From an uncultured virus (IMG/VR IMGVR_UViG_3300009507_000010) (taxonomy: Duplodnaviria > Heunggongvirae > Uroviricota > Caudoviricetes), in IMG/VR virus record IMGVR_UViG_3300009507_000010: a stretch of DNA of 20,000 bases; one strand, written 5' to 3'. The number at the start of each line of letters is the position of its first letter. The first letter of the stretch is position 1. The position numbers and the translations under genes are program-made. This document shows positions 2,163-19,956 of this stretch, one piece after another. The notes under the pieces were generated by a model. That model had not been told where the DNA came from. It worked only from the letters and a program-made list of their open reading frames with translations, and did no database searches.

Positions 2163-3194
2163 ATGGCATCATTAGCAGAAATCCGAGCAAAGCTCAAAGA
2201 ACAAGAAGCTGGCTCAAACGGCAATCGTACATCAGGCGGTGGCGATAACGCAATTTACCCATTTTGGAATATCAAAGAAGGCGAGAGTGCAATTCTACGT
2301 TTCCTTCCAGATGGTAACACATCCAATGACTTTTTCTGGGCAGAACGATTGATGATTAAACTACCTTTCGCAGGTGTTAAAGGTCAAACTGATTCACGTC
2401 CAGTACAAGTACAAGTTCCTTGTATGGAGATGTACGGAGAGTCATGTCCAATTCTTGCAGAAGTACGCGGTTGGTTCAAAGACCCTTCACTAGAAGATAT
2501 GGGTCGTAAGTACTGGAAAAAGCGTTCGTATATCATGCAAGGGTTTGTAACTGACAACCCGTTGTCAGAAGATACAACACCAGAAAACCCAATTCGTAGA
2601 TTTATTATTGGTCCACAAATCTTCCAGATTATTAAGCAGTCTTTGCTTGACCCAGATATGGAAGAATTGCCAACAGATTATACTGCTGGTGTAGACTTCC
2701 GTCTTAACAAAACATCTAAAGGCGGATATGCAGACTATGGTACATCGAACTGGGCACGTCGTGAACGTCCACTTAGTGATGCAGAAATGAATGCAATCAA
2801 TACACACGGATTGTTTAATATGTCAGACTTCCTTCCTAAGAAGCCTACTGAAGTTGAAGTTAAAGTGTTGCACGAGATGTTTGAAGCATCAGTAGATGGT
2901 GAAGCATACGATCCAGATCGTTGGTCACAGTACTTCCGACCAGCAGGTATGCAAGCACGTACAGGTGACCCGACTAAGGCAGCAAGCCCACAGGCAACTG
3001 CTACAAGTCAAAGTGCTCCTGCTCCACAAGCAGCACCAGTAGCAGCAACACCTGCTCCACAAGCAGCACCAGCAGCACCGGCAGTTGAAGAGTCAGTACC
3101 ATTTGATACTACTCCGCAAGAAGCAGCACCAGCAGCAGGTGGCGGCGGCGCAAGTGACATTCTTGCAATGATTCGCGCACGTCAGCAAGGTTAA
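2163..3194 (+). CDS. Single-stranded DNA-binding protein, T4 gp32-like
   Basis: SD GGAGG 2150-2154. gp32-type core (AILRFLP, CMEMYGESCPI, YWKKRSY, GVDFRLNK, YADYGTSNW) followed by an Ala/Pro linker. Lies directly upstream of UvsX. Confidence 0.8.
   Translation: MASLAEIRAKLKEQEAGSNGNRTSGGGDNAIYPFWNIKEGESAILRFLPDGNTSNDFFWAERLMIKLPFAGVKGQTDSRPVQVQVPCMEMYGESCPILAEVRGWFKDPSLEDMGRKYWKKRSYIMQGFVTDNPLSEDTTPENPIRRFIIGPQIFQIIKQSLLDPDMEELPTDYTAGVDFRLNKTSKGGYADYGTSNWARRERPLSDAEMNAINTHGLFNMSDFLPKKPTEVEVKVLHEMFEASVDGEAYDPDRWSQYFRPAGMQARTGDPTKAASPQATATSQSAPAPQAAPVAATPAPQAAPAAPAVEESVPFDTTPQEAAPAAGGGGASDILAMIRARQQG
3018..3072 (+). repeat. 22-bp direct repeat (33-bp period) encoding PAPQAAP twice in the SSB linker
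   Basis: CCTGCTCCACAAGCAGCACCAG at 3018-3039 and 3051-3072; partial third copy AAGCAGCACCAG at 3121-3132. Confidence 0.85.
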
Positions 3195-3205
3195 TACAGC
3201 AAGCT

Positions 3206-3239
3206 AAAAGGGTTGCATCTTTAAAAAGCAACCCTTTTT
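3206..3239 (+). terminator. Rho-independent terminator after SSB gene
   Basis: AAAAGGGTTGC (3206-3216) pairs perfectly with GCAACCCTTTT (3228-3238); ends in a T-run. Confidence 0.85.
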
Positions 3240-3274
3240 AGTTGCTCTACTTTTCAGCTTATTAGGAGAAACAA

Positions 3275-4360
3275 ATGGCTAAATCATTCGATGTTAGTAA
3301 GTTCCGTAAGGACTTGACTAAAAGTATCTCAGGCATGAGTGCTGGATTTAACGATCCTACTGATTGGATTTCAACAGGATCATATGCGCTAAACTATCTT
3401 ATCTCAGGAGACTTTCACAAGGGTGTTCCGCTGGGTAAGGTAACTGTGTTTGCAGGTGAATCAGGAGCAGGTAAGAGTTATTTCTGTTCAGGTAACATTG
3501 TAAAACACGCACAGGATCAAGGAATCTTTGTAGTACTAATTGACTCGGAGAACGCACTTGATGAGAGCTGGCTACAGGCTCTAGAAGTTGACACAAGTGA
3601 AGAAAAACTTCTTAAACTTAATATGTCAATGATTGACGATGTAGCAAAAACTATCTCAACTTTTATTACAGACTACAAATCAATGGCGGAAGAAGACCGT
3701 CCTAAAGTGTTGTTTGTAATTGACTCATTGGGTATGTTGCTAACACCTACTGATGTTGATCAGTTTAACAAGGGTGATATGAAAGGTGATATGGGTCGTA
3801 AGCCTAAGGCGTTGACTTCACTTGTTCGTAACACAGTTAATATGATTGGCTCATTGAATGTTGGACTAGTATGTACTAACCACACATACGCATCGCAAGA
3901 TATGTTTGACCCAGATGACAAAATCAGTGGTGGCTCGGGCTTTATCTATGCATCAAGTATTGTTGTTGCAATGAAGAAGATGAAGTTGAAAGAAGACGAA
4001 GACGGCAACAAGATCTCAGAAGTTATGGGTATCCGTGCTGGTTGTAAAGTAATGAAGACTCGCTATGCAAAACCGTTTGAAGGTGTGCAGGTTAAGATTC
4101 CTTACGAGACTGGTATGAATCCTTACTCAGGTCTAGTTGAATTGTTTGAGAAGAAAGGCTTGTTGACAAAGCAAGGCAATCGACTCAAGTATGTAAACTT
4201 AGCAGGCGAAGAAGTTCTTGAATATCGCAAGGCTTGGATGCAAGAAGGTAAACTCGATTTGATTATGTCGGAATACAACGAAAAAATTGCACCTGTGGTA
4301 AATACCGACGATGCAGAAGTAGTTGATGCAGACTTAATTGAAGAAACATACGAGGAGTAA
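3275..4360 (+). CDS. uvsX: RecA-family recombinase, UvsX-like
   Basis: SD AGGAG 3264-3268; ISTGSYALNYLISG, Walker A GESGAGKS, IDSENALD, Walker B FVIDSLG, TNHTY, SGGSGFIYASS. Confidence 0.92.
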   Translation: MAKSFDVSKFRKDLTKSISGMSAGFNDPTDWISTGSYALNYLISGDFHKGVPLGKVTVFAGESGAGKSYFCSGNIVKHAQDQGIFVVLIDSENALDESWLQALEVDTSEEKLLKLNMSMIDDVAKTISTFITDYKSMAEEDRPKVLFVIDSLGMLLTPTDVDQFNKGDMKGDMGRKPKALTSLVRNTVNMIGSLNVGLVCTNHTYASQDMFDPDDKISGGSGFIYASSIVVAMKKMKLKEDEDGNKISEVMGIRAGCKVMKTRYAKPFEGVQVKIPYETGMNPYSGLVELFEKKGLLTKQGNRLKYVNLAGEEVLEYRKAWMQEGKLDLIMSEYNEKIAPVVNTDDAEVVDADLIEETYEE

Positions 4361-4363
4361 CCT

Positions 4364-4603
4364 ATGAACAACGAAGAGCAGATCGTAGAGATATGGAATC
4401 TGTTTAAACCATATCTTGACAAGAAACAGATTGACATTATCGCAGAAAAGTTTATTGATCATCTTGTTGACTCTGGTACACATGACGAAGTATTAACAGC
4501 ATGCTTAGGTAACAGTCAGAGTTTAGATAATGCAATTCATTATTATCTAGATATGGAAGACGAACTTAAAGATGATGCTGATATAGACGAATGGGATGAT
4601 TAA
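4364..4603 (+). CDS. Small acidic hypothetical protein
   Basis: SD GAGGAG upstream; tightly packed between uvsX and uvsY; acidic C-terminus. Confidence 0.75.
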   Translation: MNNEEQIVEIWNLFKPYLDKKQIDIIAEKFIDHLVDSGTHDEVLTACLGNSQSLDNAIHYYLDMEDELKDDADIDEWDD

Positions 4604-4605
4604 AC

Positions 4606-5061
4606 ATGGGTTGGTATTCAGAAGTATCGCGTGATATATCTAAGATTCCTGCGGCTGTACAGTTCTTTGAAGATGAGCTAATTAGTGCTCGTGTTGAAGT
4701 AAAGCTAAAGGGCAATGTGGAACGTGCTGCTGCTGAAATGCCGGGCATTGTTGAACATCGTTTCAATCAGCTTCAAGAGATTGAAGCAATCCTAAACTAC
4801 TTGAACATCGAGCTACGTAGGTTGCGTAGCTCGTACTTTAAGAAATATCTCGAAAACTATCAACGAGCTCTGTCAAGCCGTGACGTTGAAAAATACGTTG
4901 ACGGTGAGGCAGACGTTGTTGACTATGAAAAGATTATCAACGAGTTTGCTCTTATGCGCAACAAATGGTTAGGTGTTCTTAAAGCACTTGATCAAAAGCA
5001 ATGGCAAATTACAAACGTTGTTAAGCTAAGAGTAGCAGGTATGGAAGACGCTTCGATATGA
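4606..5061 (+). CDS. uvsY: Recombination mediator, UvsY-like
   Basis: 151-aa helical protein with YLENYQRALSSRDVEKYVDGE and KALDQKQWQITNVVKLRVAG, similar to the UvsY family; downstream of uvsX. Confidence 0.7.
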   Translation: MGWYSEVSRDISKIPAAVQFFEDELISARVEVKLKGNVERAAAEMPGIVEHRFNQLQEIEAILNYLNIELRRLRSSYFKKYLENYQRALSSRDVEKYVDGEADVVDYEKIINEFALMRNKWLGVLKALDQKQWQITNVVKLRVAGMEDASI

Positions 5062-7571: not shown

Positions 7572-8494
7572 TAGCAAGTTATATGAGAGGTATCCCTGCA
7601 AACAACAGAAATCCAGAGAAGCCCGAAATTATTAACAACTTTGTAAAAGGCGTTAACATTCACGAAGGAGACCGCGGAGTAGTATGCTGGGACAATAATC
7701 CAATAGAGTGCGATGTAGCAGTTATACAAGGCTATGTACACGAACGATCTGAAGGTAGCCCTCACCTAAGACTTCGCCGAGCAGTTTTAGACCATCAAGA
7801 AAAAAGAAACAAGCGTACGATTGTAGTTGATAGTAATTTGTTTTTATATAAAGATTCAGGCAATACTAATCGATACTTGCGCTATAGTTATGACGGAGTT
7901 TTTCCTACTACTGGCGAATACTGCAATGATAGTTATGATCCAATGCGCTGGGAGAAACTCAGCAAAGATATTGGATTTTCTTTGCAGCCTTATCGAGGCA
8001 ACAAAGGTAAGTTCATAGTTATATGTGCGCAACGTGATGGCGGGTGGAGCATGGGAGGCAAGAGTGTTGTAGACTGGGTATTAGAAATATTGCCAGAAAT
8101 TAAAAAATATTCTGACAGACCTGTAATGCTACGTTTTCATCCTGGCGACGGCAATTGGAGAATGCACTACAAACGATTAATTAAATCTGGCATCATTTTA
8201 AGTAGAAGTAAGACACTAATGGACGATCTAGGACAAGCAGCAGCAGTTATCACATATAACAGTAGCCCTGGTGTTGCAGCAGCTATTGAAGGTATTCCTG
8301 TGTTTGTTACAGACCCGTTGCCTGAACAGAGCCAAGCATTTGCAGTAGCACATACTAGTTTAAGTAGGTTAACAAATCCAGAAGAATTTGACAGAGAAGA
8401 ATGGATTAAGAAACTAGCAATGTGTCACTGGAATCAAGAAGACTTAAAAAACGGTGAGTGTTGGAAATGGATGCGGCGCTGGGCTACCAAGTAA
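7565..8494 (+). CDS. Putative GT-B glycosyltransferase, KpsC/KpsS-like (paralog 2)
   Basis: IVICAQRDGGWS, IKKYSDRPVMLRFHPGD (HP motif), VITYNSSPGVAAAIEGIPVF, DREEWIKKLAMCHW. Confidence 0.6.
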   Translation: MLVASYMRGIPANNRNPEKPEIINNFVKGVNIHEGDRGVVCWDNNPIECDVAVIQGYVHERSEGSPHLRLRRAVLDHQEKRNKRTIVVDSNLFLYKDSGNTNRYLRYSYDGVFPTTGEYCNDSYDPMRWEKLSKDIGFSLQPYRGNKGKFIVICAQRDGGWSMGGKSVVDWVLEILPEIKKYSDRPVMLRFHPGDGNWRMHYKRLIKSGIILSRSKTLMDDLGQAAAVITYNSSPGVAAAIEGIPVFVTDPLPEQSQAFAVAHTSLSRLTNPEEFDREEWIKKLAMCHWNQEDLKNGECWKWMRRWATK

Positions 8495-9128
8495 GTATCC
8501 AATCTTTGTTAAAGTTAATGACACGCTTCATGCCCCAACTTTCTAATAGTTGTACAGCAGGAAGCGTTTCTCTATCTTCCTGATATTCGTGATTTTGTTG
8601 TTCAACAATCATCATAGGACGATTACGTAGTATAGTTTCTTTTGCTCCATTAAGGATCGGAACTTCATATCCTTCGCAATCAACTTTAATTAAATCAACT
8701 TCGTTAAATACAAAACTATCAAGAGTACGCATAGGAGTTTTGCCCTTACCGAAACTGTTAGGATTAACGTGACTATGTCCAGTATTATCAGGAGTAATAA
8801 TCATATCAATTTCACTTTCAACTTCGCCTAGTGCAACAGGGTGTAGTGTATAATTGTCATGCTTCGTATTTTTAAACAAGCAATCTTGAAAGTCATTTAC
8901 AGGTTCAAACGAATGTACATGATCAAAATCTTTTACAAGATCCATAGTCCATAAACCTACATTAGCACCTATGTCTAGAGCAAGTCGTTTAGATTCTAAT
9001 AAGCTAATTGCGTGGTCTCTTACACGATGTTGATAGCGTACACAGTTATCTTTTTTAAGACTTTTGTCTAGCATACGTTGAAAATGAGTTTCTACATCAG
9101 GGAGAAATATTCCTAAGTGTTCTATCAT
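8484..9128 (-). CDS. FkbM-family SAM-dependent methyltransferase
   Basis: ALDIGANVGLW, VHSFEP, VALG, TLDSF, DLIKVDCEGYEVPILNGA. Confidence 0.85.
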   Translation of the reverse strand: MIEHLGIFLPDVETHFQRMLDKSLKKDNCVRYQHRVRDHAISLLESKRLALDIGANVGLWTMDLVKDFDHVHSFEPVNDFQDCLFKNTKHDNYTLHPVALGEVESEIDMIITPDNTGHSHVNPNSFGKGKTPMRTLDSFVFNEVDLIKVDCEGYEVPILNGAKETILRNRPMMIVEQQNHEYQEDRETLPAVQLLESWGMKRVINFNKDWILTW

Positions 9129-9961
9129 TTCCAGTAATCCTCTGTTCTAGTAACCATAATATCTTTCTTATCAGACTTGCCTTTGTCTTTACGTCCGCCT
9201 TTCATATGGTCAATCCATTTTCCTAACGGTCCGTTAATCAAAGGATGTCCGCCACCGCCCGACTTTGCTTCTCTAAGATACATGTCTGCACTATAGTCAT
9301 GTGATGGAAATTCTTTATACTTCTTTAGTAGCTCGCCAAACACATAACTGTCGTGCCATTCGTCGAGTGTAAAGATACCGTTCTCTGCATCTTCGTACAT
9401 ACGTTCAAAGTCTTCTAAGAAGCTGTGGCACACAGGATGATTTAAGTTCATACCATAGAAGCCGCACTCAGGCCAAGTCTGTGATCCTTTGCCTCTGCCT
9501 ACATATGTAATGTAAGCATTGTCAGGTAACAGCTCACTAAACTGTTCGTAACTCCAATCACTGTGTACAAACGTATCTGCATCCATCCATACACACCAAC
9601 CCTTAGAGCGTGTACAAGCGTCATATACTGCGTATGTTTTATTAGCAAATCTAACAGCATCCCACTTGAATTCTTTCATCCAATCGCGACGTGTGTGACG
9701 CTGTGGTTCATTACTAACATCGCCATTAGCTTTAGGAACATTGCCCCACTTTTCTTTAAATGCATTTAGTTTAGGTAACGCTTGTTTTGCGTCAATGATT
9801 TCAATGCGATCTGGATCAGGGTTATTAGGTTTACAATCTTCTGCATATACCAACAACTTAATACGCTTGTCTACCCTTGCTGCAAAACTGTCTAAAAATC
9901 TTTGTCCGTATTTTGTTAATCCTGCTGGGTGAAAAGTTGTAACCACAGTTATTGCTGGCAT
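9125..9961 (-). CDS. GT-A nucleotide-diphospho-sugar transferase-like protein
   Basis: Start reassigned to ATG 9961 (SD AAGGA upstream on minus strand). ITVVTTF, WDAVRFANK, DxD motif VWMDADT, ECGF, EWHDSYVF, DHMKG. Confidence 0.65.
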   Translation of the reverse strand: MPAITVVTTFHPAGLTKYGQRFLDSFAARVDKRIKLLVYAEDCKPNNPDPDRIEIIDAKQALPKLNAFKEKWGNVPKANGDVSNEPQRHTRRDWMKEFKWDAVRFANKTYAVYDACTRSKGWCVWMDADTFVHSDWSYEQFSELLPDNAYITYVGRGKGSQTWPECGFYGMNLNHPVCHSFLEDFERMYEDAENGIFTLDEWHDSYVFGELLKKYKEFPSHDYSADMYLREAKSGGGGHPLINGPLGKWIDHMKGGRKDKGKSDKKDIMVTRTEDYWK

Positions 9962-9970
9962 GTTAAATCC

Positions 9971-10001
9971 TTTGTTAAATATAGTATAGGTATTTAACAA
10001 A
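9971..10001. promoter_or_regulatory. Bidirectional element: 11-bp inverted repeat carrying a TAAATA box on each strand
   Basis: TTTGTTAAATA (9971-9981), 9 nt spacer, TATTTAACAAA (9991-10001), between divergent genes starting at 9961(-) and 10001(+). Confidence 0.7.
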
Positions 10002-10840
10002 TGAAATTTAGTTTATGGACAAATTATGGCGCACTTAATAGCAGACCGGTGTTTGATGCTTTTGCAAATAGTATTATGGATGCTGGGCATACTGTTAGTT
10101 ACAATGATAACACTGCCGACATTGATGTTATTTGGAGTGTGCTTTTCCACGGCCGCATGGCTAGAAACAAAACTATCTGGTGCAACAAAAAGCCTACTAT
10201 AGTTCTCGAAGTAGGCGGCATACAACGTGGCACAACTTGGAAGGTAGGACTCAATGGAATTAATAGAGATGCTTATTTTGGTCCCGTGGGGAATAGCAGT
10301 AACCGTGCTAATCTTCTTGGACTTGTTTTAAAACCTTGGCAAACAGACAGTGAATATATTCTTATATGTGGACAACACGATAAGAGTTTACAGTGGCAAG
10401 GCATGCCAAGTATGAGCGATTGGTTTATGCAAACTTACAGAGAAATCCGCAAGCATACTGATCGTCCGATAATATTTAGACCGCATCCGCGATGTCAGCT
10501 ACCACATATTATAGAACTAGGACTAAAAAATGTTTACAGACAAAATCCTATAAAGATAGACGGCTCGTACGATGACTTTGACATGCAGTTTGACCGTGTA
10601 CACGCTACTGTAAGCTGGAGTAGCAATCCAGGTATACACAGTGTACTCAACGGCGTTCCAGCGTTTGTAGGGCCCAGCTCGTTGGCGTATGACGTATCTA
10701 TAAAGACACTTGCCAACATAGACAATCCTCCAGTAGTAGACAGACAGCAATGGCTTAATGACTACGCACACACTGAATGGACTGTTGAAGAAATTTCTCA
10801 AGGAATACCTTTAAAACGCTTGACATCTAAACTGTTTTAG
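10001..10840 (+). CDS. Putative GT-B glycosyltransferase, KpsC/KpsS-like (paralog 3)
   Basis: IVLEVG, ILICGQHDKSLQW, IRKHTDRPIIFRPHP (HP motif), VSWSSNPGIHSVLNGVPAF, DRQQWLNDYAHTEW. Confidence 0.6.
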   Translation: MKFSLWTNYGALNSRPVFDAFANSIMDAGHTVSYNDNTADIDVIWSVLFHGRMARNKTIWCNKKPTIVLEVGGIQRGTTWKVGLNGINRDAYFGPVGNSSNRANLLGLVLKPWQTDSEYILICGQHDKSLQWQGMPSMSDWFMQTYREIRKHTDRPIIFRPHPRCQLPHIIELGLKNVYRQNPIKIDGSYDDFDMQFDRVHATVSWSSNPGIHSVLNGVPAFVGPSSLAYDVSIKTLANIDNPPVVDRQQWLNDYAHTEWTVEEISQGIPLKRLTSKLF

Positions 10841-10848
10841 TATATAAT
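10820..10848 (+). promoter_or_regulatory. Consensus sigma70 promoter
   Basis: TTGACA 10820-10825, 17 bp, TATAAT 10843-10848; SD AAGGAG 10862-10867. Confidence 0.88.
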
Positions 10849-10875
10849 AGTAATATTACTAAAGGAGCATTATGG

Positions 10876-12060
10876 ATGTTAAACGTTACTGTAGAAGATT
10901 GTTTAGAACTTCTAACTGGTTTAAATAAAATAGAAAACTATAAATTTGAACTAGAAAGCTCTGACTACAATATTCTAACCAGTGTTGCTAGGCAAGTATT
11001 CAAAGGTGTTGCGCTGACTGATAGACAGTATGACATGTTAGCACAAAAGTTAGAGAAATATACTACACAGTTCGAAGCTCAAGGTATTGATTTAACAAAC
11101 GTATTAGAACGTAAAATTTTAAGAAATCCTTTTAGAGAAGTTGACCGAACACAGCGCATTTATATAGATAACAAACTTATTGTTGCACAATTTCCCTTTA
11201 ACAAGAAACTTATTTCTAAAATACAAAAACTTCGTGACGATGCTGACGGCCAAATTACCAATAATGAAAATAAATGGAAGTTTGAACTATCAGAAGGAAA
11301 CGTGTTGCTTATAGGAAAAACTTTAGACAAGTTTGAATTTTCAAATGAGTTTCAAGAGTTATTTGACCAAGTTAGTAGTTTTGTATACGAAGAACACGTT
11401 CCTGGAATATACAAAGAAGACAATCAGTATGTATTAAAGAATGTGCATCCAGACGCAATAAAAAATGTTACAACTGATTGCGGTCCTATTGATTCAAATG
11501 TTTTAAAGTATGTTGATCGCAGAAATCAATATGGCATTGTACACTGTGATGTAGAATCTACTCTTGACACTTTAGAAGAAAAAATAGCATATAGAAAGAC
11601 GTCATCAGTTTATATTCCAGATGACTATAGTATAGACGAACTTGTTGACTCTATCGAAACGCTAGGCAGATATCCTGTATTAGTTGTAGCAGACGAGACT
11701 AATTTAATTCACTTGTATGAATATTACAATAGCTTTTCAAGATATGTACCTAACAATAAACAGTCGGTGATGTTTCGTCTTTCTAACGAAACGCAAACAG
11801 AACGAAACTTTAACCAGTGGGTTAAAGATAACAAATTAAACAATTGGGTTGACAACACTACTAAAATAGTGTATATTAATGCTAGTAAAGTTCCTAAACC
11901 GGTACTAAAGAATTATGACCCTCAGTGTTTACTTAATTTGTCTACTAGTATTAGGACATATGGAGTTAAACAATTATGGTTAGAACACATTAGCGATTTA
12001 AGAATATTTTATGCAACCAAGCCTTTGGCTATGAGAAATATGGACACTATTACTAAATGA
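10876..12060 (+). CDS. Hypothetical protein upstream of helicase
   Basis: 394-aa ORF with promoter and SD; ATGA overlap with the helicase gene; no family motif recognised. Confidence 0.75.
   Translation: MLNVTVEDCLELLTGLNKIENYKFELESSDYNILTSVARQVFKGVALTDRQYDMLAQKLEKYTTQFEAQGIDLTNVLERKILRNPFREVDRTQRIYIDNKLIVAQFPFNKKLISKIQKLRDDADGQITNNENKWKFELSEGNVLLIGKTLDKFEFSNEFQELFDQVSSFVYEEHVPGIYKEDNQYVLKNVHPDAIKNVTTDCGPIDSNVLKYVDRRNQYGIVHCDVESTLDTLEEKIAYRKTSSVYIPDDYSIDELVDSIETLGRYPVLVVADETNLIHLYEYYNSFSRYVPNNKQSVMFRLSNETQTERNFNQWVKDNKLNNWVDNTTKIVYINASKVPKPVLKNYDPQCLLNLSTSIRTYGVKQLWLEHISDLRIFYATKPLAMRNMDTITK
11849..11877 (+). promoter_or_regulatory. Intragenic sigma70-like promoter upstream of helicase
   Basis: TTGACA 11849-11854, 17 bp, TATATT 11872-11877; about 180 bp before ATG 12057. 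Confidence 0.6.
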
Positions 12061-13520
12061 GTACCTGCAAACTAATTATTGAAGATGAAGTAAACATTAA
12101 GATTGAAGGTCTAGAAGTAGATGTTCGTCGACAACTTGCTAATGCTCTTAAGTTTGAAGTGCCGTATGCAAAGCATATGCCGCAGTATAAACTAGGACGC
12201 TGGGATGGTAAAGTTGCTTTCTTTGGTATTGGCGGCAGCGGATATGTTAATCACCTTGATGTAGTACAGCAAGTACTTGCAAAGAATCGAGTACAAATTG
12301 TTGACATTGAAGACAGACGCCATCCAATACAATTTAACTTTACTCCAGTTACAGAACGTTACTGGGCAGACCAAGGTGTTTGTTGGCCAGACGGTCATCC
12401 TGTAGCAGGTACAGAAATCATTCTACGTGACTATCAAGTAGAAGCAATTAATAACTTTCTACAAAACCCACAGAGCTTGCAACAGATTGCTACTGGTGCA
12501 GGTAAGACAATTACAACAGCAACGCTGTCACACATAACTGAGCCCTACGGTCGTAGTCTTGTTATTGTTCCTAACAAATCACTTGTTGAACAAACAGAAG
12601 AAGACTATATTAACTGTGGGCTTGATGTAGGGGTGTACTTCGGCGACAGAAAGAACTTAGGTAAGACTCACACTATTTGCACTTGGCAGAGTTTGAATAT
12701 TCTAGACAAGAAGCACAAGGACGGTTCAGCAGTGTTATCACTTGCAGAGTTCCTAGAAGGTGTAAGCACTATTATTGTTGACGAAGTACACCAAGCCAAA
12801 GCAGAAGTTCTTAAGAACCTGCTCACTCGCAACCTACGTAATGCACCCATTCGTTGGGGACTAACTGGCACAGTGCCCAAAGAGAAGTTTGAATTTGAAA
12901 GTATTCATGCTAGCTTGGGTCCTGTTATTGGACAGATTAGTGCTAAGGAATTACAAGACAAAGGTGTGCTATCACAATGTCATGTTAATATTGTACAATT
13001 AATTGATACTGTATCACACGCCGGCTATCAAGAAGAATTAAAATATCTTGTAACTAATACTGACAGGATTGAATACTTAGGCAAACTATTAAACAACGTA
13101 AAAGAATCAGGCAACACACTTATACTCGTAGATAGAATCAGCGCAGGACAAATGCTTGCTGAACTAATACCTAACAGCACGTTTATTAGCGGTGCTGTCA
13201 AAGTTAAAGACAGGAAGGAAACATATGATACAATTCGCGAAGGAACTAATGAAGTCATTATCGCAACCTACGGGGTCGCTGCGGTGGGACTTAATATACC
13301 TCGTATTTTTAACTTGGTGCTTTTGGAGCCTGGCAAATCATTTGTAAGGGTAATTCAAAGTATTGGACGCGGCGTAAGAATAGCAAAAGACAAAGACTTC
13401 GTGCAAATATGGGATCTTACATCAACGTGTAAGTTTGCGAAGCGACATCTAACTCAGCGTAAGAAATTTTACAAAGAAGCAGAATATCCCTTTACAATTG
13501 AAAAGGTAGATTGGAACTAA
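12057..13520 (+). CDS. uvsW: SF2 DNA helicase, UvsW-like
   Basis: Q motif LRDYQ, Walker A ATGAGKT, IVPNKSLVEQ, DEVH, GLTGT, AVGLNIP, QSIGRGVR; N-terminal WDGKVAFF typical of UvsW. Confidence 0.85.
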   Translation: MSTCKLIIEDEVNIKIEGLEVDVRRQLANALKFEVPYAKHMPQYKLGRWDGKVAFFGIGGSGYVNHLDVVQQVLAKNRVQIVDIEDRRHPIQFNFTPVTERYWADQGVCWPDGHPVAGTEIILRDYQVEAINNFLQNPQSLQQIATGAGKTITTATLSHITEPYGRSLVIVPNKSLVEQTEEDYINCGLDVGVYFGDRKNLGKTHTICTWQSLNILDKKHKDGSAVLSLAEFLEGVSTIIVDEVHQAKAEVLKNLLTRNLRNAPIRWGLTGTVPKEKFEFESIHASLGPVIGQISAKELQDKGVLSQCHVNIVQLIDTVSHAGYQEELKYLVTNTDRIEYLGKLLNNVKESGNTLILVDRISAGQMLAELIPNSTFISGAVKVKDRKETYDTIREGTNEVIIATYGVAAVGLNIPRIFNLVLLEPGKSFVRVIQSIGRGVRIAKDKDFVQIWDLTSTCKFAKRHLTQRKKFYKEAEYPFTIEKVDWN

Positions 13521-14027
13521 ATGCAAATATTAACATTAGAAAACACAACATACAATTTAAACAATCTTCCAGATAAAATTAACGATGACATACGGTTTGC
13601 TGTTTTAGATAACAATGTACCTGCAGAATCAGACTTTTACTGGATACCATTAATATTTTTGGAATCGTTTAATAGCCCGGCCATTGTGCTAAACATAGGC
13701 GGAACAGAAATAACAATGCCAATTGATTGGAACATAGTTGTTGGTTGTCAAGAAAGTGGCACCGACTTAGAAGTTATTCCACTAACAAGTGTAGCAGACA
13801 GAGGCTTTGATGTATTCCTCTTTAATCCACATACATCATTCGTAGCTCAGTGGGGAAGCCTTGAAGTAACAAACTTTTACAATGATGTGAAATGGTTCTT
13901 TCCTAAAATGAAAAATAATCAAATGCTAGCTGTTCCGCTAGAAGAAGGCAGTAATCCAATGTGTGCATTCTTCTGCAAAGACGTTAGTAGATCCAGCGAG
14001 CTAATAGATTTTGGAAACTTACTATGA
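13521..14027 (+). CDS. Hypothetical beta-rich protein
   Basis: 168-aa ORF abutting the helicase stop; no firm family assignment. Confidence 0.7.
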   Translation: MQILTLENTTYNLNNLPDKINDDIRFAVLDNNVPAESDFYWIPLIFLESFNSPAIVLNIGGTEITMPIDWNIVVGCQESGTDLEVIPLTSVADRGFDVFLFNPHTSFVAQWGSLEVTNFYNDVKWFFPKMKNNQMLAVPLEEGSNPMCAFFCKDVSRSSELIDFGNLL

Positions 14028-14599
14028 CATTATACAGCAAGGACTATACAAATCAACTTAAACAGTTGCACGAAAAGAAACAATCATTCGGCAGCCGAAC
14101 CGGACTAGGCGACATTCAACAATGGATTGAAAAGTATAATCCGGAGACCTTTTTAGACTACGGCTGCGGCAAAGGCGGACTAGTTAACACACTCAACGAC
14201 ATGATTCCAAATAGTTGTGTTGGTTATGATCCGGGCAATGCCGAGTACGCTGCTGAGCCGCCAGGTCCTGCAGAGATGCTTATTAGTACTGATGTACTAG
14301 AACATATCGAGCCCGAGTATATCGATGCTGTGTTACAACACATAGATAAACACTTTACTCGAGTAGCGTACTTGCTGATTGCAACTTGTCCTGCAAAGAA
14401 AAGTTTACCTGATGGCCGCAACGCACACTTAATTCAAGAAGAGCCAGACTGGTGGCGCCCTCTACTACTAAAAAATATTAATGCAAAGATTGTAGACGAA
14501 AAGTATAAACTAGGTACTTGGACTAATAAGAAGACTGGACAAGACCATCCAAACAACAAGTTTATCGTAGTATTAGAAAAGAGTAGCAATGGGAATTAA
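14024..14599 (+). CDS. Class I SAM-dependent methyltransferase
   Basis: FLDYGCGKG, GYDPG, ISTDVLEHIEP, GRNAHLI..WW. Confidence 0.85.
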   Translation: MTLYSKDYTNQLKQLHEKKQSFGSRTGLGDIQQWIEKYNPETFLDYGCGKGGLVNTLNDMIPNSCVGYDPGNAEYAAEPPGPAEMLISTDVLEHIEPEYIDAVLQHIDKHFTRVAYLLIATCPAKKSLPDGRNAHLIQEEPDWWRPLLLKNINAKIVDEKYKLGTWTNKKTGQDHPNNKFIVVLEKSSNGN

Positions 14600-14954
14600 G
14601 GCAGGAAAAATTTGGGGTTCAACTGAACTGATCCACGCTAACGGTGTACTAGAGTTTCATCGTATTGAATATAAAGCAGGATATAAATGTTCAGAACACG
14701 AACACGAATTTAAATGGAATGGATTTTTTGTTGAATCGGGCAAGATGATTGTTCGAGTTTGGCAAGATGATCAAGGACTAGTTGACGAGACTATTCTTGA
14801 AGCAGGCGACTTTACACAAGTAAAGCCCGGCAAGATCCATCAGTTTGAAGGTTTAGAAGACGGTGTCGCTTTTGAACTATACTGGGCGGAATTTAATCAC
14901 GATGACATTGTTCGTCGTACAAGCGGCACAGAAGTAGAAAGTAAAAAGAAATGA
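14589..14954 (+). CDS. Cupin-fold protein (sugar isomerase/epimerase-like)
   Basis: KIWG, CSEHEHEFKWNGFFVESG, VKPGKIHQF cupin motifs. Confidence 0.75.
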   Translation: MGIKAGKIWGSTELIHANGVLEFHRIEYKAGYKCSEHEHEFKWNGFFVESGKMIVRVWQDDQGLVDETILEAGDFTQVKPGKIHQFEGLEDGVAFELYWAEFNHDDIVRRTSGTEVESKKK

Positions 14955-15253
14955 AAGAATATTTTAATTTTAACGGCGTAGCAAAGCGTCAAGAGTTTTG
15001 GGCAGTGCATATTGTCTCAATTCTAGTACTGATTGTTGCTATGGCAATGCTAGAAGGTGCTGGAGCAGTGGGCGCACTTGCTGCATTAATTATCCTTGTT
15101 GGTGCATTTTGGGCAGTACTTGCTGTTACTGTAAAACGCATACGTGATGCAGGACTCAACACTTGGTGGTTACTAGCAGTGCTTGTTCCTTATGTAGGTA
15201 CAGTGGCTACTATTGTATTTGGTTGCCTTAGCAGCGCAGAGCAAGATGGCTGA
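14951..15253 (+). CDS. DUF805 (YhaH-like) inner-membrane protein
   Basis: YFNFNGVAKRQEFW, LAVTVKRIRDAG..WWLL..VPYVG; three hydrophobic segments. Confidence 0.8.
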   Translation: MKEYFNFNGVAKRQEFWAVHIVSILVLIVAMAMLEGAGAVGALAALIILVGAFWAVLAVTVKRIRDAGLNTWWLLAVLVPYVGTVATIVFGCLSSAEQDG

Positions 15254-15503
15254 TCTTCTTCCAGGAGAGGCATTGATATATGAGCGTAGCGACGGTGTTG
15301 TCTACGCTCATTATCGCGACAAGCCTGAGATACCGCGTTGGATCATAGGCGGCGATCCTGCAGGAGTAGCAAGGGCACAAGGTGACATGCTCAACTACAG
15401 TGACTGGCAAGACTTGTGTAGATTGTCAGAAGAGTATCCTACAATAAAAAAGCTCTTGGATCAAGTAGTTACAATGTATTACACAGTGAAGGACGACAAA
15501 TGA
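15246..15503 (+). CDS. Hypothetical protein
   Basis: ORF track 15213..15503; ATG 15246 (MADLLPGEALIYERSDG) gives a short overlap with the previous gene. Confidence 0.65.
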   Translation: MADLLPGEALIYERSDGVVYAHYRDKPEIPRWIIGGDPAGVARAQGDMLNYSDWQDLCRLSEEYPTIKKLLDQVVTMYYTVKDDK

Positions 15504-16276
15504 GAATCATAGCAGGACCGTGCCAACACGAATCGTTAGCACAGAGTGCAGAGATTGCTAAAGAATGTAAGCGTGTGTGCGACAAGTATGGCATTGAATA
15601 TTATTTTAAAGCCAGTTATGACAAAGCCAATCGTACAAGCGCAAACGGTGTGCGTGGTATGGGTATGGATGCTACACTCACAGACTTTTTAGCACTAAAG
15701 GTAACACTAGGTGTAAAGACACTTACTGACGTACACGACTATGTGCAAGTAAATCGCATTGAAAGAGAATTTAAAGATGCAGTTGATGTTTACCAAATTC
15801 CTGCGTTCTTGTGCAGGCAAACAGATTTGATTACAGCGGCGTGTGCTACAGATAAGATTGTAAATATCAAAAAAGGACAGTTCCTTGCACCTTGGGACGT
15901 CAAAGGTATACTAAGCAAAACAGAAGGTGCTAAAGAAGTATGGATAACAGAAAGGGGAACTAGTTTTGGATATAATACACTTGTCGTGGATTTCACTGGC
16001 TTACAGTATATGCTTGATACTTATGATGCTCCTATCGTGCTGGATGCTACTCACGCAGTACAGAAACCTGGAGGCAAGGGTGATAGTAGTGGCGGCAATC
16101 GTGATTATGTGCCTGGGCTCGCTCGCGCTGGGGCTGCTCTTGGGATCGACTCCTTCTTTATGGAAGTCCATGCTAACCCTGATCTAGCACCTAGTGACGG
16201 ACCTAATATGTTGCGACTAGAAGACTTTGAAAAAGTAGTAGAAGACATTGTTGCTATTAGGAGAGTTTTAAAATGA
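15500..16276 (+). CDS. kdsA: KDO8P synthase (2-dehydro-3-deoxyphosphooctonate aldolase)
   Basis: IAGPC, FKASYDKANRTS, QIPAFLCRQTDL, NIKKGQF, ERGTSFGYNTLVVDF, DATHAVQKPG, FMEVH, SDGPNM. Confidence 0.95.
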   Translation: MRIIAGPCQHESLAQSAEIAKECKRVCDKYGIEYYFKASYDKANRTSANGVRGMGMDATLTDFLALKVTLGVKTLTDVHDYVQVNRIEREFKDAVDVYQIPAFLCRQTDLITAACATDKIVNIKKGQFLAPWDVKGILSKTEGAKEVWITERGTSFGYNTLVVDFTGLQYMLDTYDAPIVLDATHAVQKPGGKGDSSGGNRDYVPGLARAGAALGIDSFFMEVHANPDLAPSDGPNMLRLEDFEKVVEDIVAIRRVLK

Positions 16277-16956
16277 ACAAGACAGCAATACTAATTCCTG
16301 CTAGGTACGGCAGCACCCGCCTTCCAGGCAAGCCATTGATATCATTAGATAATATTCCTATGATACGCAGAGTATATGAACGCTGCCGCAAGACAGGACT
16401 TGACACCTATGTACTAACTGATGACATGCGCATCTTTGAATTATTTGGCGCACATAACTGTTGGATCGAAGAAGTAGATTATGCTAACGGCACAGAACGA
16501 TGCGCAGGCGCGATACAAAATGATTTCTTTAAAAAATATAATAAGTTTATTAATGTACAAGGCGACATGCCCGATGTAACAGCTGAAGTGATTAACAAGT
16601 GTCACACACTGTTAGATTATTACAATGTGTCAACAGTATACGCAACTATGCCAAAGATGATGCAAGACGATCCTAATACTGTAAAGTGTGTACACGCAAG
16701 TGAACATGCACTTTGGTTTGGCAGAGGCATTACAGGATACGGCAGTTGGCACTTAGGCGTATATGGTTACAGACGCAACGCATTAGAAATGTATCCTACA
16801 TTGCCGGTACCAGAAGAAGAAAGAATTGAGCAATTAGAACAGCTCAGATGGTTAAAAAACTCTTGGCAGATCGGGATTAATCCTGTATACTATAAAGGAG
16901 TAGAGATAAACACACCCGAGGATGTAGAAACATGGCAGCAGAAAAACTCCCAATAA
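16273..16956 (+). CDS. kdsB: CMP-Kdo synthetase (3-deoxy-manno-octulosonate cytidylyltransferase)
   Basis: IPARYGSTRLPGKPL, NGTERC, INVQGD, DPNTVK, HLGVYGY, EQLEQLRWL, INTPED; ATGA overlap with kdsA. Confidence 0.92.
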   Translation: MNKTAILIPARYGSTRLPGKPLISLDNIPMIRRVYERCRKTGLDTYVLTDDMRIFELFGAHNCWIEEVDYANGTERCAGAIQNDFFKKYNKFINVQGDMPDVTAEVINKCHTLLDYYNVSTVYATMPKMMQDDPNTVKCVHASEHALWFGRGITGYGSWHLGVYGYRRNALEMYPTLPVPEEERIEQLEQLRWLKNSWQIGINPVYYKGVEINTPEDVETWQQKNSQ

Positions 16957-17384
16957 AAGATGTACTAGCCGCAATCGATATGGGTGCAAAGTCTGTATGG
17001 GATGAGCTAGACGTCGATCAGCGCAAGCAGGTTAGCTTCTGGCTACTCAATAGATATGTGTCAGGAGTTAGCGGCAGTAGAGAAAAGCAAGAACTTGCCA
17101 TCTTTAAGACTAACGAGTACTACAATAAAAATTATATGTCAGTTAGTAAAGAACAAAAACTAATGTGGCAACTGTTGTGCATGAGCGGCAATACTGGTAA
17201 GATAGAATACCATCCATGGATTGGTTTGAAAAAGAAAACCGGTAGCAACAACAAAGCAATAAAGTTACTAGAACAAATTTATCCACACTTAAAGAACGAC
17301 GAGGTAGAATTACTTGCTAGAATATCTACAAACAAAGAACTCAAACAACTTGCGCAAGAGCACGACATTGACTTCAAGCCCTAA
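16932..17384 (+). CDS. Probable clamp-loader small subunit, T4 gp62-like
   Basis: Pattern FWLLNRYVS...NEYYN...KLMWQLL...HPWI..KKK...LLEQIYP...VELLARI resembles the gp62 family; judged by eye only. Confidence 0.45.
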   Translation: MAAEKLPIKDVLAAIDMGAKSVWDELDVDQRKQVSFWLLNRYVSGVSGSREKQELAIFKTNEYYNKNYMSVSKEQKLMWQLLCMSGNTGKIEYHPWIGLKKKTGSNNKAIKLLEQIYPHLKNDEVELLARISTNKELKQLAQEHDIDFKP

Positions 17385-18057
17385 GCCATATGTATGTGAA
17401 TACTGTGGCGGCAGCTACGTTAAAGAGTCAACTCTTGCAGTGCATCTTTGCGAAAAGAAACGTAGAGCATTGCAAAAGGATGAAAAGCGTGTACGGCACG
17501 GGTTCTATGCATTTCAGCGTTTCTATAAACTAAGTGCAGGAGCAAAGAAAGAAAAAACATACGAAGAGTTTTGCAAGTCACCATACTATAATGCATTTGT
17601 TAAGTTTGGCAGTTTCATTAGTAATGTTAAGCCGTTATATCCAGAAAAGTATATTGATTACGTTATTAAGAGCGGAGTCAAATTAGATCACTGGTGCCGC
17701 GATGAGCTTTATGAAAAGTATGCGTTAGAATTGATTCTTAAAGAAGATGCAACGACTGCACTAGAACGTAGTATTGTTACTATGGTAGAATGGGCAAAAG
17801 AAAACGATAGTGTATACAATCATTACTTTAATTATGTTAGTCATAATAGAGCAGTCCAACATATACGCGACGGAAAAATTAGTCCGTGGATTGTTCTTAA
17901 TTGTGCTAGCGGCAAAGCAATGTTAGCACAATTCAACGACGAACAATTGAAATTAGTCTATCAAGTTATTAATCCTCAACACTGGGCTATGCGATTTAAA
18001 AGATTGCCTCTAGACGTACAACTTGTAAAAGACGTTGCTAAGGAAGCGGGACTCTAA
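17368..18057 (+). CDS. Zinc-finger (C-x2-C-x12-H-x-C) protein
   Basis: KPYVCEYCGGSYVKESTLAVHLCEKKRR; likely start TTG 17368 (ORF track 17314). Confidence 0.65.
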   Translation: MTSSPKPYVCEYCGGSYVKESTLAVHLCEKKRRALQKDEKRVRHGFYAFQRFYKLSAGAKKEKTYEEFCKSPYYNAFVKFGSFISNVKPLYPEKYIDYVIKSGVKLDHWCRDELYEKYALELILKEDATTALERSIVTMVEWAKENDSVYNHYFNYVSHNRAVQHIRDGKISPWIVLNCASGKAMLAQFNDEQLKLVYQVINPQHWAMRFKRLPLDVQLVKDVAKEAGL

Positions 18058-18284
18058 TGAAACCTAATACTAACTTTGATTTTAATGTAGAAGAACTTGC
18101 TCTAGTAGAAGAGTCTATGCAATATCGTATGCGTAGATTATTAGCACGTCGAGAAACTGTTGTAAAAGAAAACAGCAAAATTAAGATTGACAAAGAAGTA
18201 AAACAAATATATACTTTACTAGGTAAGATACACAATCAAAAGGTTTGGTTTACTACTACAGACAAATTCCAAGGCGGAGGTTAA
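18057..18284 (+). CDS. Small basic hypothetical protein
   Basis: TAATG stop/start overlap with the upstream gene; 75 aa, helical-looking. Confidence 0.6.
   Translation: MKPNTNFDFNVEELALVEESMQYRMRRLLARRETVVKENSKIKIDKEVKQIYTLLGKIHNQKVWFTTTDKFQGGG
18187..18215 (+). promoter_or_regulatory. Intragenic sigma70-like promoter upstream of mini-DnaE
   Basis: TTGACA 18187-18192, 17 bp, TATACT 18210-18215; 70 bp before ATG 18286, which has SD GGAGG at 18276-18280. Confidence 0.7.
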
Positions 18285-18285
18285 T

Positions 18286-18852
18286 ATGCCTGATATTGAT
18301 ATTGACTTTGCAGACAGAGACATTGTTTTAAACAAGATCAAGCATCGAGTTGCAAAGCTAGATACTGGCAAAAAACATAACACTGGTGTTTATGTAACAG
18401 AGATTCCGCACAATCCGTTTAATGAAATATCTACTATTGACTACAAGGCCGCAGACGAACGTGGTTACTTTAAACTAGACTTCCTTAACGTGAGCATATA
18501 CAAAGACGTTAGGGATGAAGCACACTTAACACAACTAATGGAAAGGGAACCAATATGGCAACTACTGGAACACACAGACTTCAGCGACAAAGTCTTTCAT
18601 CTCAACGGGCACGGCGTACTGTTGCAGCAATTGAAGCCTACTTCGGTGGAACAATTAGCAGCGACACTAGCAATCATTCGACCAGCGAAGAGGCACCTGA
18701 GTGGAAGCAATTGGAATTTGATTTTTCAAGAGGTTTGGAAAAAGCCTGAAGAAGGCTATTATTTTAAGAAGGCACACGCAGTATCTTATGCAATGGCATG
18801 TGTTGTACACATGAATTTAATATGTGAGCAGTTGGCAGATAATGGATCTTGA
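18286..18852 (+). CDS. Minimal DnaE (Pol III alpha)-like catalytic core, 188 aa
   Basis: MPDIDIDF, KHNTGVYV (cf. HAAGVVI), GYFKLDFLNV (cf. GLVKFDFLGL), LKPTSVEQLAATLAIIRP, YYFKKAHAVSYA (cf. YGFNKSHAAAY), all in DnaE order. Confidence 0.85.
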   Translation: MPDIDIDFADRDIVLNKIKHRVAKLDTGKKHNTGVYVTEIPHNPFNEISTIDYKAADERGYFKLDFLNVSIYKDVRDEAHLTQLMEREPIWQLLEHTDFSDKVFHLNGHGVLLQQLKPTSVEQLAATLAIIRPAKRHLSGSNWNLIFQEVWKKPEEGYYFKKAHAVSYAMACVVHMNLICEQLADNGS

Positions 18853-19543
18853 AGTAGACTTAATTATTACTAACTGGAGCAGTAAGTACAGTGATCGTAT
18901 GTTCGATGCTTGGCAGCATATTAGTATTCCTAAACTTGCTAGGAACTCTGTTCCTGATTGGCATAAAGATACTATGCCATTAGATGAAGACAGCAATAGA
19001 ACAATTAAAAAGTGCATGCCGGTAACAGATGCAATAACTTCCGGATACATTATGCCAGCGCCGGTTGATATGCTAATATACACCGACACAGATAATAACT
19101 TACAGTTCAAATGCCAGTATGGCGAATTCTTTGTATCAAGGCATTCACAGACACAGTATGCTAAAACCCCGTATAAAGATAATACAGTTTTAAAGTTTGA
19201 TTTTCCTTGGATATTTAAAACACCGCCCGGCTGGAGTATGTTATATACACAACCATTTCACAGAGACAACTCTAAATTAGAAGCTCTATCAGCTATTGTA
19301 GAAACAGACACATACTATAACAGCGTTAACTGCCCTGTACAAATTAAAGATTGGCCTGTTGGCGAGATGCTAGAAATACCCAAAGGCTATCCGCTAGTAC
19401 AAGCAATTCCTTTTAAGCGTGAAGAATGGAAGATGAATATGAAACACGTTGACTGGAATGCGCACTTTAAAACAACGCTTGAGTTTGTTAAGAATACTAG
19501 TGCTTATAGAGACGAGTATCGAGAAAAGAAAAAGTTCAGTTAG
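18842..19543 (+). CDS. DUF6065-like phage protein (possible dUTPase-like beta fold)
   Basis: TIKKCMPVTDAITSGY, PWIFKTPPGWSMLYTQP, IVETDTY, IPKGYPLVQAIPFKRE; start ATG 18842 or 18824. Confidence 0.55.
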   Translation: MDLEVDLIITNWSSKYSDRMFDAWQHISIPKLARNSVPDWHKDTMPLDEDSNRTIKKCMPVTDAITSGYIMPAPVDMLIYTDTDNNLQFKCQYGEFFVSRHSQTQYAKTPYKDNTVLKFDFPWIFKTPPGWSMLYTQPFHRDNSKLEALSAIVETDTYYNSVNCPVQIKDWPVGEMLEIPKGYPLVQAIPFKREEWKMNMKHVDWNAHFKTTLEFVKNTSAYRDEYREKKKFS

Positions 19544-19911
19544 TTTTTGTCTTTTCGTATTAGCTGTACTGATTTTCGTTTTACTCGTTTTAGTGTTAGG
19601 TTGTTTAAGTTTACAGTAGGACCAATAACTACTCTTACATCTTTAGAGTTCATTGTCATCATAGCATACTTTAAATCTGTAATCTCATTTCTTAAAAAGA
19701 TATTAATAGGTATCATTCGATTAGATTCCCACCACCATATCTCGCCTAGTTCTAATAATTGTTCTTTATGTTTTTCCGAATGTAAGCCTTCATAAACAAT
19801 CATAGTAGTAATGTATTGATCCTGATTGCAAACGATGCCGACATACTCGGCGCCGCCGTAACTAACTACGCTTACGAATGGAAATTTTTCTTGAATATCT
19901 TTAGTTAACAT
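19540..19911 (-). CDS. Hypothetical phage protein
   Basis: Start reassigned to ATG 19911 (MLTKDIQEKFPFVSVV...WWWESNRMIPINIFL); stop overlaps the convergent gene by 4 bp. Confidence 0.7.
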   Translation of the reverse strand: MLTKDIQEKFPFVSVVSYGGAEYVGIVCNQDQYITTMIVYEGLHSEKHKEQLLELGEIWWWESNRMIPINIFLRNEITDLKYAMMTMNSKDVRVVIGPTVNLNNLTLKRVKRKSVQLIRKDKN

Positions 19912-19921
19912 GTCATCTCGA

Positions 19922-19956
19922 TAAATATACTTATGCAAGTATTTAATCAATATTTA
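19922..19956. promoter_or_regulatory. Face-to-face TAAATA boxes between divergent genes
   Basis: TAAATA on + at 19922-19927; TATTTA (TAAATA on -) at 19940-19945 and 19951-19956. Confidence 0.6.

Follow-up and report, generated by a model that had tools for sequence, protein, structure and literature searches.

A new member of the split minimal DNA polymerase III alpha family in an uncultured phage

Introduction

Jumbo phages of group 2.2 encode, beside a family B DNA polymerase, a minimal DNA polymerase III alpha subunit that is split in two (Iyer et al., 2021; PMC7824862). As described in the main text of that study, one gene encodes an N-terminal NTP-binding protein and another, located far away, a C-terminal Mg2+- and template-binding protein, and the authors suggested that the split polymerase aids the synthesis of one strand, or repair. 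The accessible text of PMC12926913 does not mention the split form. We found no experimental study of the split phage polymerase in the open-access literature searched.

In cyanobacteria, the halves of a split DnaE are spliced into the full-length enzyme. The phage family shares with this intein-split system the derivation of a DnaE from two separate genes (PMC3919608). Another comparison, by functional analogy only, is with Bacillus subtilis DnaE3 and eukaryotic Pol alpha, each likewise an additional polymerase alongside the main replicase and a primase; the B. subtilis enzyme and Pol alpha extend RNA primers before hand-off to a processive replicase (PMC3919608). The DnaE3 of Thermotogae resembles the phage proteins in its strongly reduced thumb and PHP domains (PMC3919608). 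B. subtilis DnaE3 is a single full-size chain, whereas the phage counterpart is known from sequence and models.

Here we describe a short polymerase gene in a 20,000 nt stretch of DNA (the window, meaning the whole stretch analyzed) from an uncultured virus (IMGVR_UViG_3300009507_000010). The window differs from the virus contig record (G000) at 32 of 20,000 positions, one of which alters a residue of the protein studied here, at a non-conserved position.

Results

The 188-aa ORF encodes the C-terminal unit of the split polymerase

The ORF at 18286-18852 (+) encodes a protein of 188 aa, hereafter the C piece, which opens with MPDIDIDF and carries the DnaE motifs in the order that an initial annotation of the sequence had reported. 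It matched PHROG 11778 ("DNA polymerase", profile length 197) with an E value of 6.5e-60. A Pfam search at E 0.01 gave no match, and phmmer placed three stretches of the ORF on Mycobacterium tuberculosis DnaE1, weakly (whole-sequence E 0.11-0.25). Relatives were present in 96 records of cultured phages, nearly all of them jumbo phages, and 95 of these matched over at least 80% of the C piece; identity was 52% for Paride/PA5oct and Atu_ph07 and 34-38% for RaK2-like phages. These results confirm that the ORF is a genuine gene.

The C piece is a new member of the family described in 2021, an identity that rests on the published description and the set of phages rather than on accession numbers. 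As described for that family, it is a stand-alone protein with the Mg2+-binding Asp residues, the template-binding subdomain and little else. The family (PHROG 11778, partner PHROG 11127), as presented in the main text of PMC7824862, also has a two-gene minimal DnaE core beside a family B polymerase, which in the present case was seen in relatives; shared with it are the phages involved (Atu_ph07, RaK2-like and PA5oct/Paride-like, 34-52% identity) and the context of T4-like SSB, UvsX, UvsY and UvsW with DnaG and DnaB. The present copy differs in coming from an uncultured phage and in lying on a contig without the partner region. Since the family is already published, the gene itself is no discovery.

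To compare residues we used alignment A1 (97 sequences), made up of the C piece, 69 full-length representatives chosen from 150, 17 sequences taken from 120 close hits, and 10 proteins related to the fusion described below. The features of the ORF are as follows, with conservation given for A1.

18286..18852, plus strand: C-terminal unit (188 aa) of a split minimal DNA polymerase III alpha, with catalytic palm strands and shortened fingers (sequence, PHROG and model; description in PMC7824862 section 3.4.1)
18292..18306, plus strand: D3-x-D5-x-D7, in which D3 and D5 correspond to the E. coli metal ligands D401 and D403, and D7 to D405; invariant in 97/97
18346..18393, plus strand: beta-hairpin, residues 21-36, a short turn replacing the DnaE thumb (~85 residues) and containing H31 and G34; model strands E21-24 and E30-36; H31 in 96/97
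18472..18480, plus strand: K63-x-D65, corresponding to E. coli K553 (salt bridge to the primer's final phosphate) and D555 (third catalytic Asp); invariant in 97/97
18679..18690, plus strand: R132-P133-A134-K135, corresponding to E. coli R639-P640-G641 (close to the templating base), with a Lys peculiar to the mini family after them; R132 and P133 in 97/97, K135 in 90/97
18757..18777, plus strand: Y158-x-F160-K161-K162-x-H164, corresponding to E. coli Y754/F756/N757/K758/H760 of the nascent base-pair pocket, with the steric-gate His and with N757 replaced by Lys; H164 in 97/97, K or R at 161 in 96/97

The P-D-x-D-x-D stretch corresponds to E. coli residues 400-405 (PMC4374717), and D405 is an extra Asp peculiar to DnaE-type enzymes (PMC3919608); the catalytic triad is therefore D3, D5 and D65, equivalent to D401, D403 and D555, with D7 equivalent to D405. 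Two of the three Asp residues initially named as catalytic, D5 and D65, stand, but D7 gives way to D3. The reported shortening between the Asp residues also stands, with the figures corrected to 60 residues versus 152 in E. coli DnaE. Equivalents of all four Asp residues, together with K63, R132, P133 and H164, were invariant across A1 at identities down to 29%. Loss of the catalytic Asp residues among short homologs had been named as an outcome that would refute the initial reading; D3, D5 and D65 were kept in every sequence. Pro occupies the P133 column in 27 of 28 DnaE rows as well. The ends of the protein vary, with 1-17 residues ahead of D3 and a tail of 16-42 aa past the His (97 sequences), and ahead of DxDxD the reading frame stays open for no more than 39 codons (80 loci).

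The C piece is predicted to fold as a DnaE core lacking thumb and most of the fingers

Structure prediction against the DnaE palm had been proposed as a check. An AF2 model of the C piece (97-row alignment, pLDDT 95) folds as a DnaE core and aligned with residues 419-808 of M. tuberculosis DnaE1 (5lew; Z 9.7, rmsd 3.6, 183 residues aligned), residues 461-838 of Taq Pol III (2hpi; Z 9.4, rmsd 3.8) and PolC (3f2b; Z 9.4). The top structural matches were all C-family polymerases, the first unrelated row appeared at Z 4.3, and Foldseek agreed. Among the listed fold matches of the C piece, the best being C-family polymerases, there was no AEP fold, and Pol-beta-fold transferases over the palm of the C piece alone did not appear in the structural match list either.

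The extent of shortening was read from spacings in a full-length DnaE (P0292). The first Asp and the conserved His are 28 residues apart in the C piece versus 113 in P0292, and R132 and H164 are 32 residues apart versus 114, corresponding to ~85 residues missing at the thumb and ~82 in the fingers; the latter include the RRAMGKK segment carried by 29 of 30 long DnaEs. Thus, the deletion of the thumb and the strong reduction of the fingers were read correctly at the outset, as was the lack of GRGS/FERF, PHP, clamp-binding and OB parts. The PHP, full palm, thumb, fingers, (HhH)2 and clamp-binding motif that a replicative DnaE holds in one chain are not united in the 188-aa ORF. Compared with bacterial DnaE (E. 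coli, Thermus aquaticus 2hpi, M. tuberculosis 5lew/7pu7), the phage protein shares the palm fold, the Asp triad and equivalents of D405, K553, RP(G) and H760, but it is without PHP, thumb, RRAMGKK finger segment, clamp-binding and OB parts, and in the phage the GS motif resides on another gene, the R390 position is Glu and N757 is Lys.

A partner gene in relatives carries the complementary N-terminal piece

A search with PF07733 found one short N-piece gene each in Paride (169 aa) and Atu_ph07 (177 aa), belonging to PHROG 11127. N pieces (~170-185 aa) carry a GRG-S motif and end where the FERFL of DnaE ends, and the C piece begins at MPDID. GRGS was invariant in 60 distinct N genes, and the 82 related N pieces each terminate no more than one residue away from EFL[RM]. 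The mixed alignment used for the pieces (A7) was anchored with full-length DnaEs. Unlike the intein-split DnaE, the phage N piece stops right after EFL[RM] and the C piece starts at DxDxD. Neither piece matched the intein Pfam families, and membership in the intein-split group was rejected given that the gene ends bear no split-intein halves.

On the contig of the present phage, a motif scan and searches with PF07733 and phrog_11127 detected no partner, PHP or family B gene; this contig is only 55.7 kb long and 15% complete, so the absence is uninformative. It also ends 1.1 kb past the C gene, so no N piece would be expected on it. We searched 49 contigs of relatives, favoring long contigs among 80 loci. 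Six matched, two with true N pieces (G002 and G003) and four with a different DnaE of ~550 aa, and the 43 contigs without an N-piece match are fragments of 2-73% completeness. G002 and G003 are two of the three related contigs longer than 200 kb, and their C pieces are 71-72% identical to the present one. The N piece lies 122 kb downstream of the C piece in G002, and the distance is estimated at ~131 kb in G003, across a missing part. In six cultured jumbo phages plus Alishewanella phage Slicko01, the N-C distances span 4.5-183 kb. Neither an N piece nor a family B polymerase was found in the relative that is 73% complete (G001); for the N piece, a geometry like that of G002 would explain the blank. 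In none of 80 C loci and 80 N loci did the halves lie next to each other, and their tallies by genus run in parallel (C/N: Escherichia 34/34, Pseudomonas 11/11, Erwinia 8/8, Klebsiella 11/10). Thus, the genome search for a GRGS ORF proposed in the initial annotation was empty on the phage's own contig and successful in Paride, Atu_ph07, G002, G003 and Slicko01.

Some features of the carriers are of separate note. Slicko01 (OQ508956.1) has a genome of 141 kb, below jumbo size, and carries both halves on the same strand 11 kb apart (L177:12571-13182 and 24021-24533). At L088:1240-2865 and related loci, the N piece lies between a conserved gene of ~78 aa (79/80) and one of ~127 aa (76/80), followed by a GroES-like gene (72/80). 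In Paride and Atu_ph07, the gene for the clamp-loader large subunit follows at the N-piece locus.

Predicted proteins join the two pieces in natural single-chain fusions

Three predicted proteins on contigs of 2.4-5.9 kb (P0229, P0272 and P0273) join the N and C pieces in a single chain of 375-376 aa, in DnaE order and with a short linker. They are 78-81% identical and probably represent one lineage. A model of the fusion (pLDDT 86, pTM 0.82) aligned with DnaE over 344 residues (Z 21.2, rmsd 4.2), and its best seven structural matches were C-family polymerases with Z 12-21. The alignment used for the model held 28 DnaE rows, and hence the modeled packing may be borrowed from DnaE. The fusions support one two-piece enzyme. 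With the partner gene in relatives, the natural fusions and the published family, the initial suggestion that the ORF is part of a split polymerase, with another small gene providing the rest, is supported, and we regard it as very likely that the C piece is one of two halves of an enzyme.

The fusions, the residue swaps described below and the corrected numbering are small additions beyond the main text of PMC7824862, whose supplement may cover them. That text likewise does not mention the 141-kb carrier Slicko01 or relatives with a second DnaE of ~550 aa, which figure 3b or the supplement may include.

The replication neighborhood includes recombination genes and, in relatives, DnaG and DnaB

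The window holds the following genes around the C piece, with counts for loci of limited length.

2163..5061, plus strand: gp32-type SSB, RecA/UvsX-like recombinase and UvsY-like mediator, recombination genes of group 2 jumbo phages
12057..13520, plus strand: UvsW-like helicase of a T4-like replication/recombination context; 58/80 loci
16932..17384, plus strand: conserved neighbor of 150 aa; 79/80 loci
17314..18057, plus strand: C2H2-type protein of 247 aa (phrog_11058), a conserved upstream neighbor of unknown function; 80/80 related loci
19540..19950, minus strand: conserved downstream neighbor phrog_11637; 77/80 loci

Past the contig end, relatives carry a DnaG primase (~2 kb downstream, 68/80 loci) and a DnaB helicase (~5 kb, 56/80), many loci being too short to reach them. 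L006 encodes both, and its C piece and the present one are 97% identical; with these and the SSB, RecA-like, UvsY-like and UvsW-like genes in the window, the gene set is that of group 2. The 150-aa neighbor is possibly a small clamp-loader subunit, which we offer as a lead only (atlas clusters at 0.92, PF16790 in 13% of members).

The DnaG proteins of relatives gave Toprim matches, and in the eight primases aligned the EGxxD and PD-x-[DE] acidic motifs are kept, the second being less regular in Slicko01; a degenerate primase in need of a stand-in was rejected on these grounds. A family B polymerase (PF00136 over the cut-off) was found in four of five related records. Since, among relatives, DnaG keeps its motifs and a family B polymerase is present in most records searched, neither the main replicase nor the primase is missing there. 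In the same five records, PHP gave no match over the cut-off, and no separate finger/PHP gene appeared beyond the C pieces and one weak match (E 0.004) that by position lies inside a KdsB-like ORF.

Four of 80 related loci (L045:14700-16475, and L037, L050 and L078; loci L089-L092) contain, 6.3-8.5 kb downstream of the C piece, another C-family gene, whose product has ~550 aa. This protein gave no PHP match and its thumb region is shortened, yet RGS, the Asp triad, RRA and the His are all retained; it is an intermediate-size DnaE beside the split one.

Active-site residues are divided between the pieces and partly rewired

In ternary complexes of E. coli Pol III, as reported in the accessible part of a preprint (10.64898/2026.06.29.735100), the residues around the incoming dNTP include R362, G363 and S364 of the GS motif. 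This motif maps to the N piece, and D401/D403, Y754, F756, N757 and H760 map to D3/D5, Y158, F160, K161 and H164 of the C piece. The same source describes K553, the equivalent of K63, as essential and binding the primer's final phosphate, and places R639-P640-G641, equivalent to R132-P133-A134, near the templating base (10.64898/2026.06.29.735100). H760 has been proposed as a steric gate against rNTPs in E. coli, according to the accessible text of PMC8485763. With K63, the RP motif and H164 kept, the C piece meets the needs of a template-directed dNTP polymerase that extends primers, the GS motif excepted.

Other contacts have changed. In 15 of 15 rows of the mini family the R390 position is Glu, immediately preceded by His or a basic residue, versus E-R in 28 of 28 DnaE rows; R396 has no column in the mini family, and R709/K714/K715 are deleted with the RRAMGKK segment. 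The R390A substitution alone lowers efficiency 27-fold in E. coli (preprint 10.64898/2026.06.29.735100, accessible part), so the activity of the phage enzyme may be weak or different. The family has two Lys residues of its own, K135 (90/97; Pro in DnaE) and K161 (K or R in 96/97; Asn in DnaE), and the E. coli position of K161, N757, lies within 4 Å of dGTP in the same preprint (10.64898/2026.06.29.735100). From these sequence changes, we infer that K135 and K161 may offset the lost basic charges.

We propose that the C and N subunits together constitute a two-gene C-family DNA polymerase of ~370 residues of group 2.2-type jumbo phages. On sequence and model, the C subunit supplies the metal-binding D3, D5 and D65, K63 for the primer phosphate, the RP motif on the template side and the His of the steric gate; the N subunit, a separate gene in relatives, supplies the palm helices and the GRGS nucleotide-binding motif, ending at FERFL. 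The two chains would assemble without an intein into one Pol-beta-fold active site, adding dNTPs to a primed template. Without thumb, PHP, clamp-binding and OB parts, such an enzyme would be expected to add few nucleotides per binding event and not to proofread. It could assist the family B replisome as an accessory enzyme, either by elongating the RNA primers made by DnaG prior to hand-off or by closing short gaps during recombination-dependent replication and repair.

We consider this explanation as a whole likely, and an active template-directed DNA polymerase comparably probable. A short-run accessory polymerase, in primer extension or gap filling, would be its most likely form. Taken singly, primer extension, suggested by analogy with DnaE3 and Pol alpha, is tentative, and so is short gap filling in recombination-dependent replication or repair. 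More speculative still is a version in which the rewired triphosphate site (K135, K161 and the ER-to-[RK]E change at R390) would make N+C a Pol-alpha-like extender that hands DnaG primers to the family B replicase.

An active N+C enzyme would be a C-family polymerase only about one third as long as DnaE. Such an enzyme would reveal the capabilities of a palm without thumb and clamp, and whether the phage divides priming, primer extension and bulk synthesis among DnaG, C-family and B-family enzymes; were the primer-extender role true, C-family and B-family enzymes would share one viral replisome. The single-chain fusions and the residue map ease an activity test.

Alternative activities for the split enzyme

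The loss of the thumb and of most of the fingers, the Glu at the R390 position and the missing finger Arg/Lys residues would also suit a nucleotidyltransferase of the terminal-transferase or end-healing kind, with the split enzyme adding one or a few nucleotides untemplated or to a nick, a protein or a modified end. The N+C model resembles Pol-beta-fold nucleotidyltransferases, among them ANT(2''), CCA-adding enzymes and TUTases, in a region that covers at least residues ~100-280 and crosses the junction, but only at Z 3-5, well below its seven best matches, all C-family polymerases. Invariance of the RP motif, of the K553 equivalent and of the steric-gate His is a further argument against this activity, which we consider unlikely. 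A stand-alone primase-like, protein-priming or modifying nucleotidyltransferase, as first suggested for the ORF, is not supported: the ORF is without the dNTP-contacting GS motif, its steric-gate His is retained along with the contacts to template and primer, and relatives have DnaG nearby.

The C piece, or N+C, is small and non-processive by anatomy and its gene lies near DnaB, as would suit a primase starting chains de novo. We nonetheless find such a primase improbable, in that relatives encode a DnaG-type primase with its acidic motifs ~2 kb downstream and the rNTP-excluding His (97/97) and the primer-phosphate Lys are both retained.

Equally improbable, in our assessment, is that the C piece acts alone, or jointly with a protein of the host or a third one of the phage (the 247-aa zinc-finger neighbor, for example), the N piece being unrelated. 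The distance between the N and C genes, their different neighbors, the prediction that the C piece folds alone with high pLDDT and the presence of the 247-aa gene at every locus could be read in this way; however, the halves are exactly complementary at the FERFL/MPDID junction, occur fused and are found in the same phage groups, and because the entire neighborhood is syntenic, adjacency says little about any one neighbor.

The short form is maintained by purifying selection

Relatives of similar length number at least 7,999, given that 7,999 of 8,000 scored candidates of 103-329 aa (clusters at 90% identity) were relatives, and the best 120 are 184-203 aa long; the C piece is thus a very common core gene of this jumbo-phage group. 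Among proteins of 385-2000 aa, the 8,000 scored included 30 matches, all with DnaE domain sets and E values of 3e-6 or weaker (the fusion range of 330-384 aa was skipped). Nei-Gojobori dN/dS was computed for 70 distinct C genes, drawn from the window and from those 76 of 80 loci in which the gene starts with Met. The 822 of 2,415 pairs with dS 0.05-1.5, which are non-independent, gave a median of 0.14 and a maximum of 0.26, and 1,589 pairs were saturated. Purifying selection acts on the N pieces too, with a median dN/dS of 0.21 (1,564 of 1,770 pairs). The dN/dS check among homologs that the initial annotation had called for therefore came out purifying throughout the usable pairs, and its argument against decay is borne out by the short homologs, the invariant active site and the low dN/dS. 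Although ~85% of DnaE is missing and the nearest proteins of at least 385 aa are ordinary DnaEs, the C piece has a negligible chance of being a fragment left by decay or truncation of a full-length DnaE, since the long DnaEs match only weakly and conservation and selection results refute a relic.

Expression signals and local variation

Two candidate expression signals precede the gene.

18187..18215, plus strand: sigma-70-like promoter match TTGACA-17-TATACT (11/12), a consensus match only, within an upstream ORF of 75 aa
18276..18281, plus strand: Shine-Dalgarno-like GGAGGT, 4 nt ahead of the ATG, read from the sequence

The promoter and strong Shine-Dalgarno sequence claimed for the gene are thus both present as sites; the promoter is no trait of the family, given a score of at least 11 upstream in 11 of 75 relatives versus 15 of 375 control windows, and a conserved promoter was rejected. 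The 75-aa ORF that holds the promoter-like site (window 18057-18284) belongs to no known family and is present in only four of 80 related loci. Contigs of relatives from RNA runs join 18045 to 18286 without it, and it looks like a variable insert. Four marine metatranscriptome runs from one study contained contig pieces of the region, including exact 3´ pieces of the C-piece gene, with DNA carry-over possible.

The C gene is overlapped at its end by a DUF6065/phrog_7084 gene (window 18842-19543), for which just 12 of 80 loci gave a match. A sugar/capsule block interrupts the replication cluster (window 5321-16956), with cytidylyltransferase/cupin, GT8, FkbM methyltransferase, KdsA-like and KdsB-like genes. 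Outside the window, the first 14 kb of G000 (in window orientation) hold about ten ORFs of 300-400 aa, most with cysteine-rich starts of the CxxxCxxC type, which we take to resemble radical SAM proteins.
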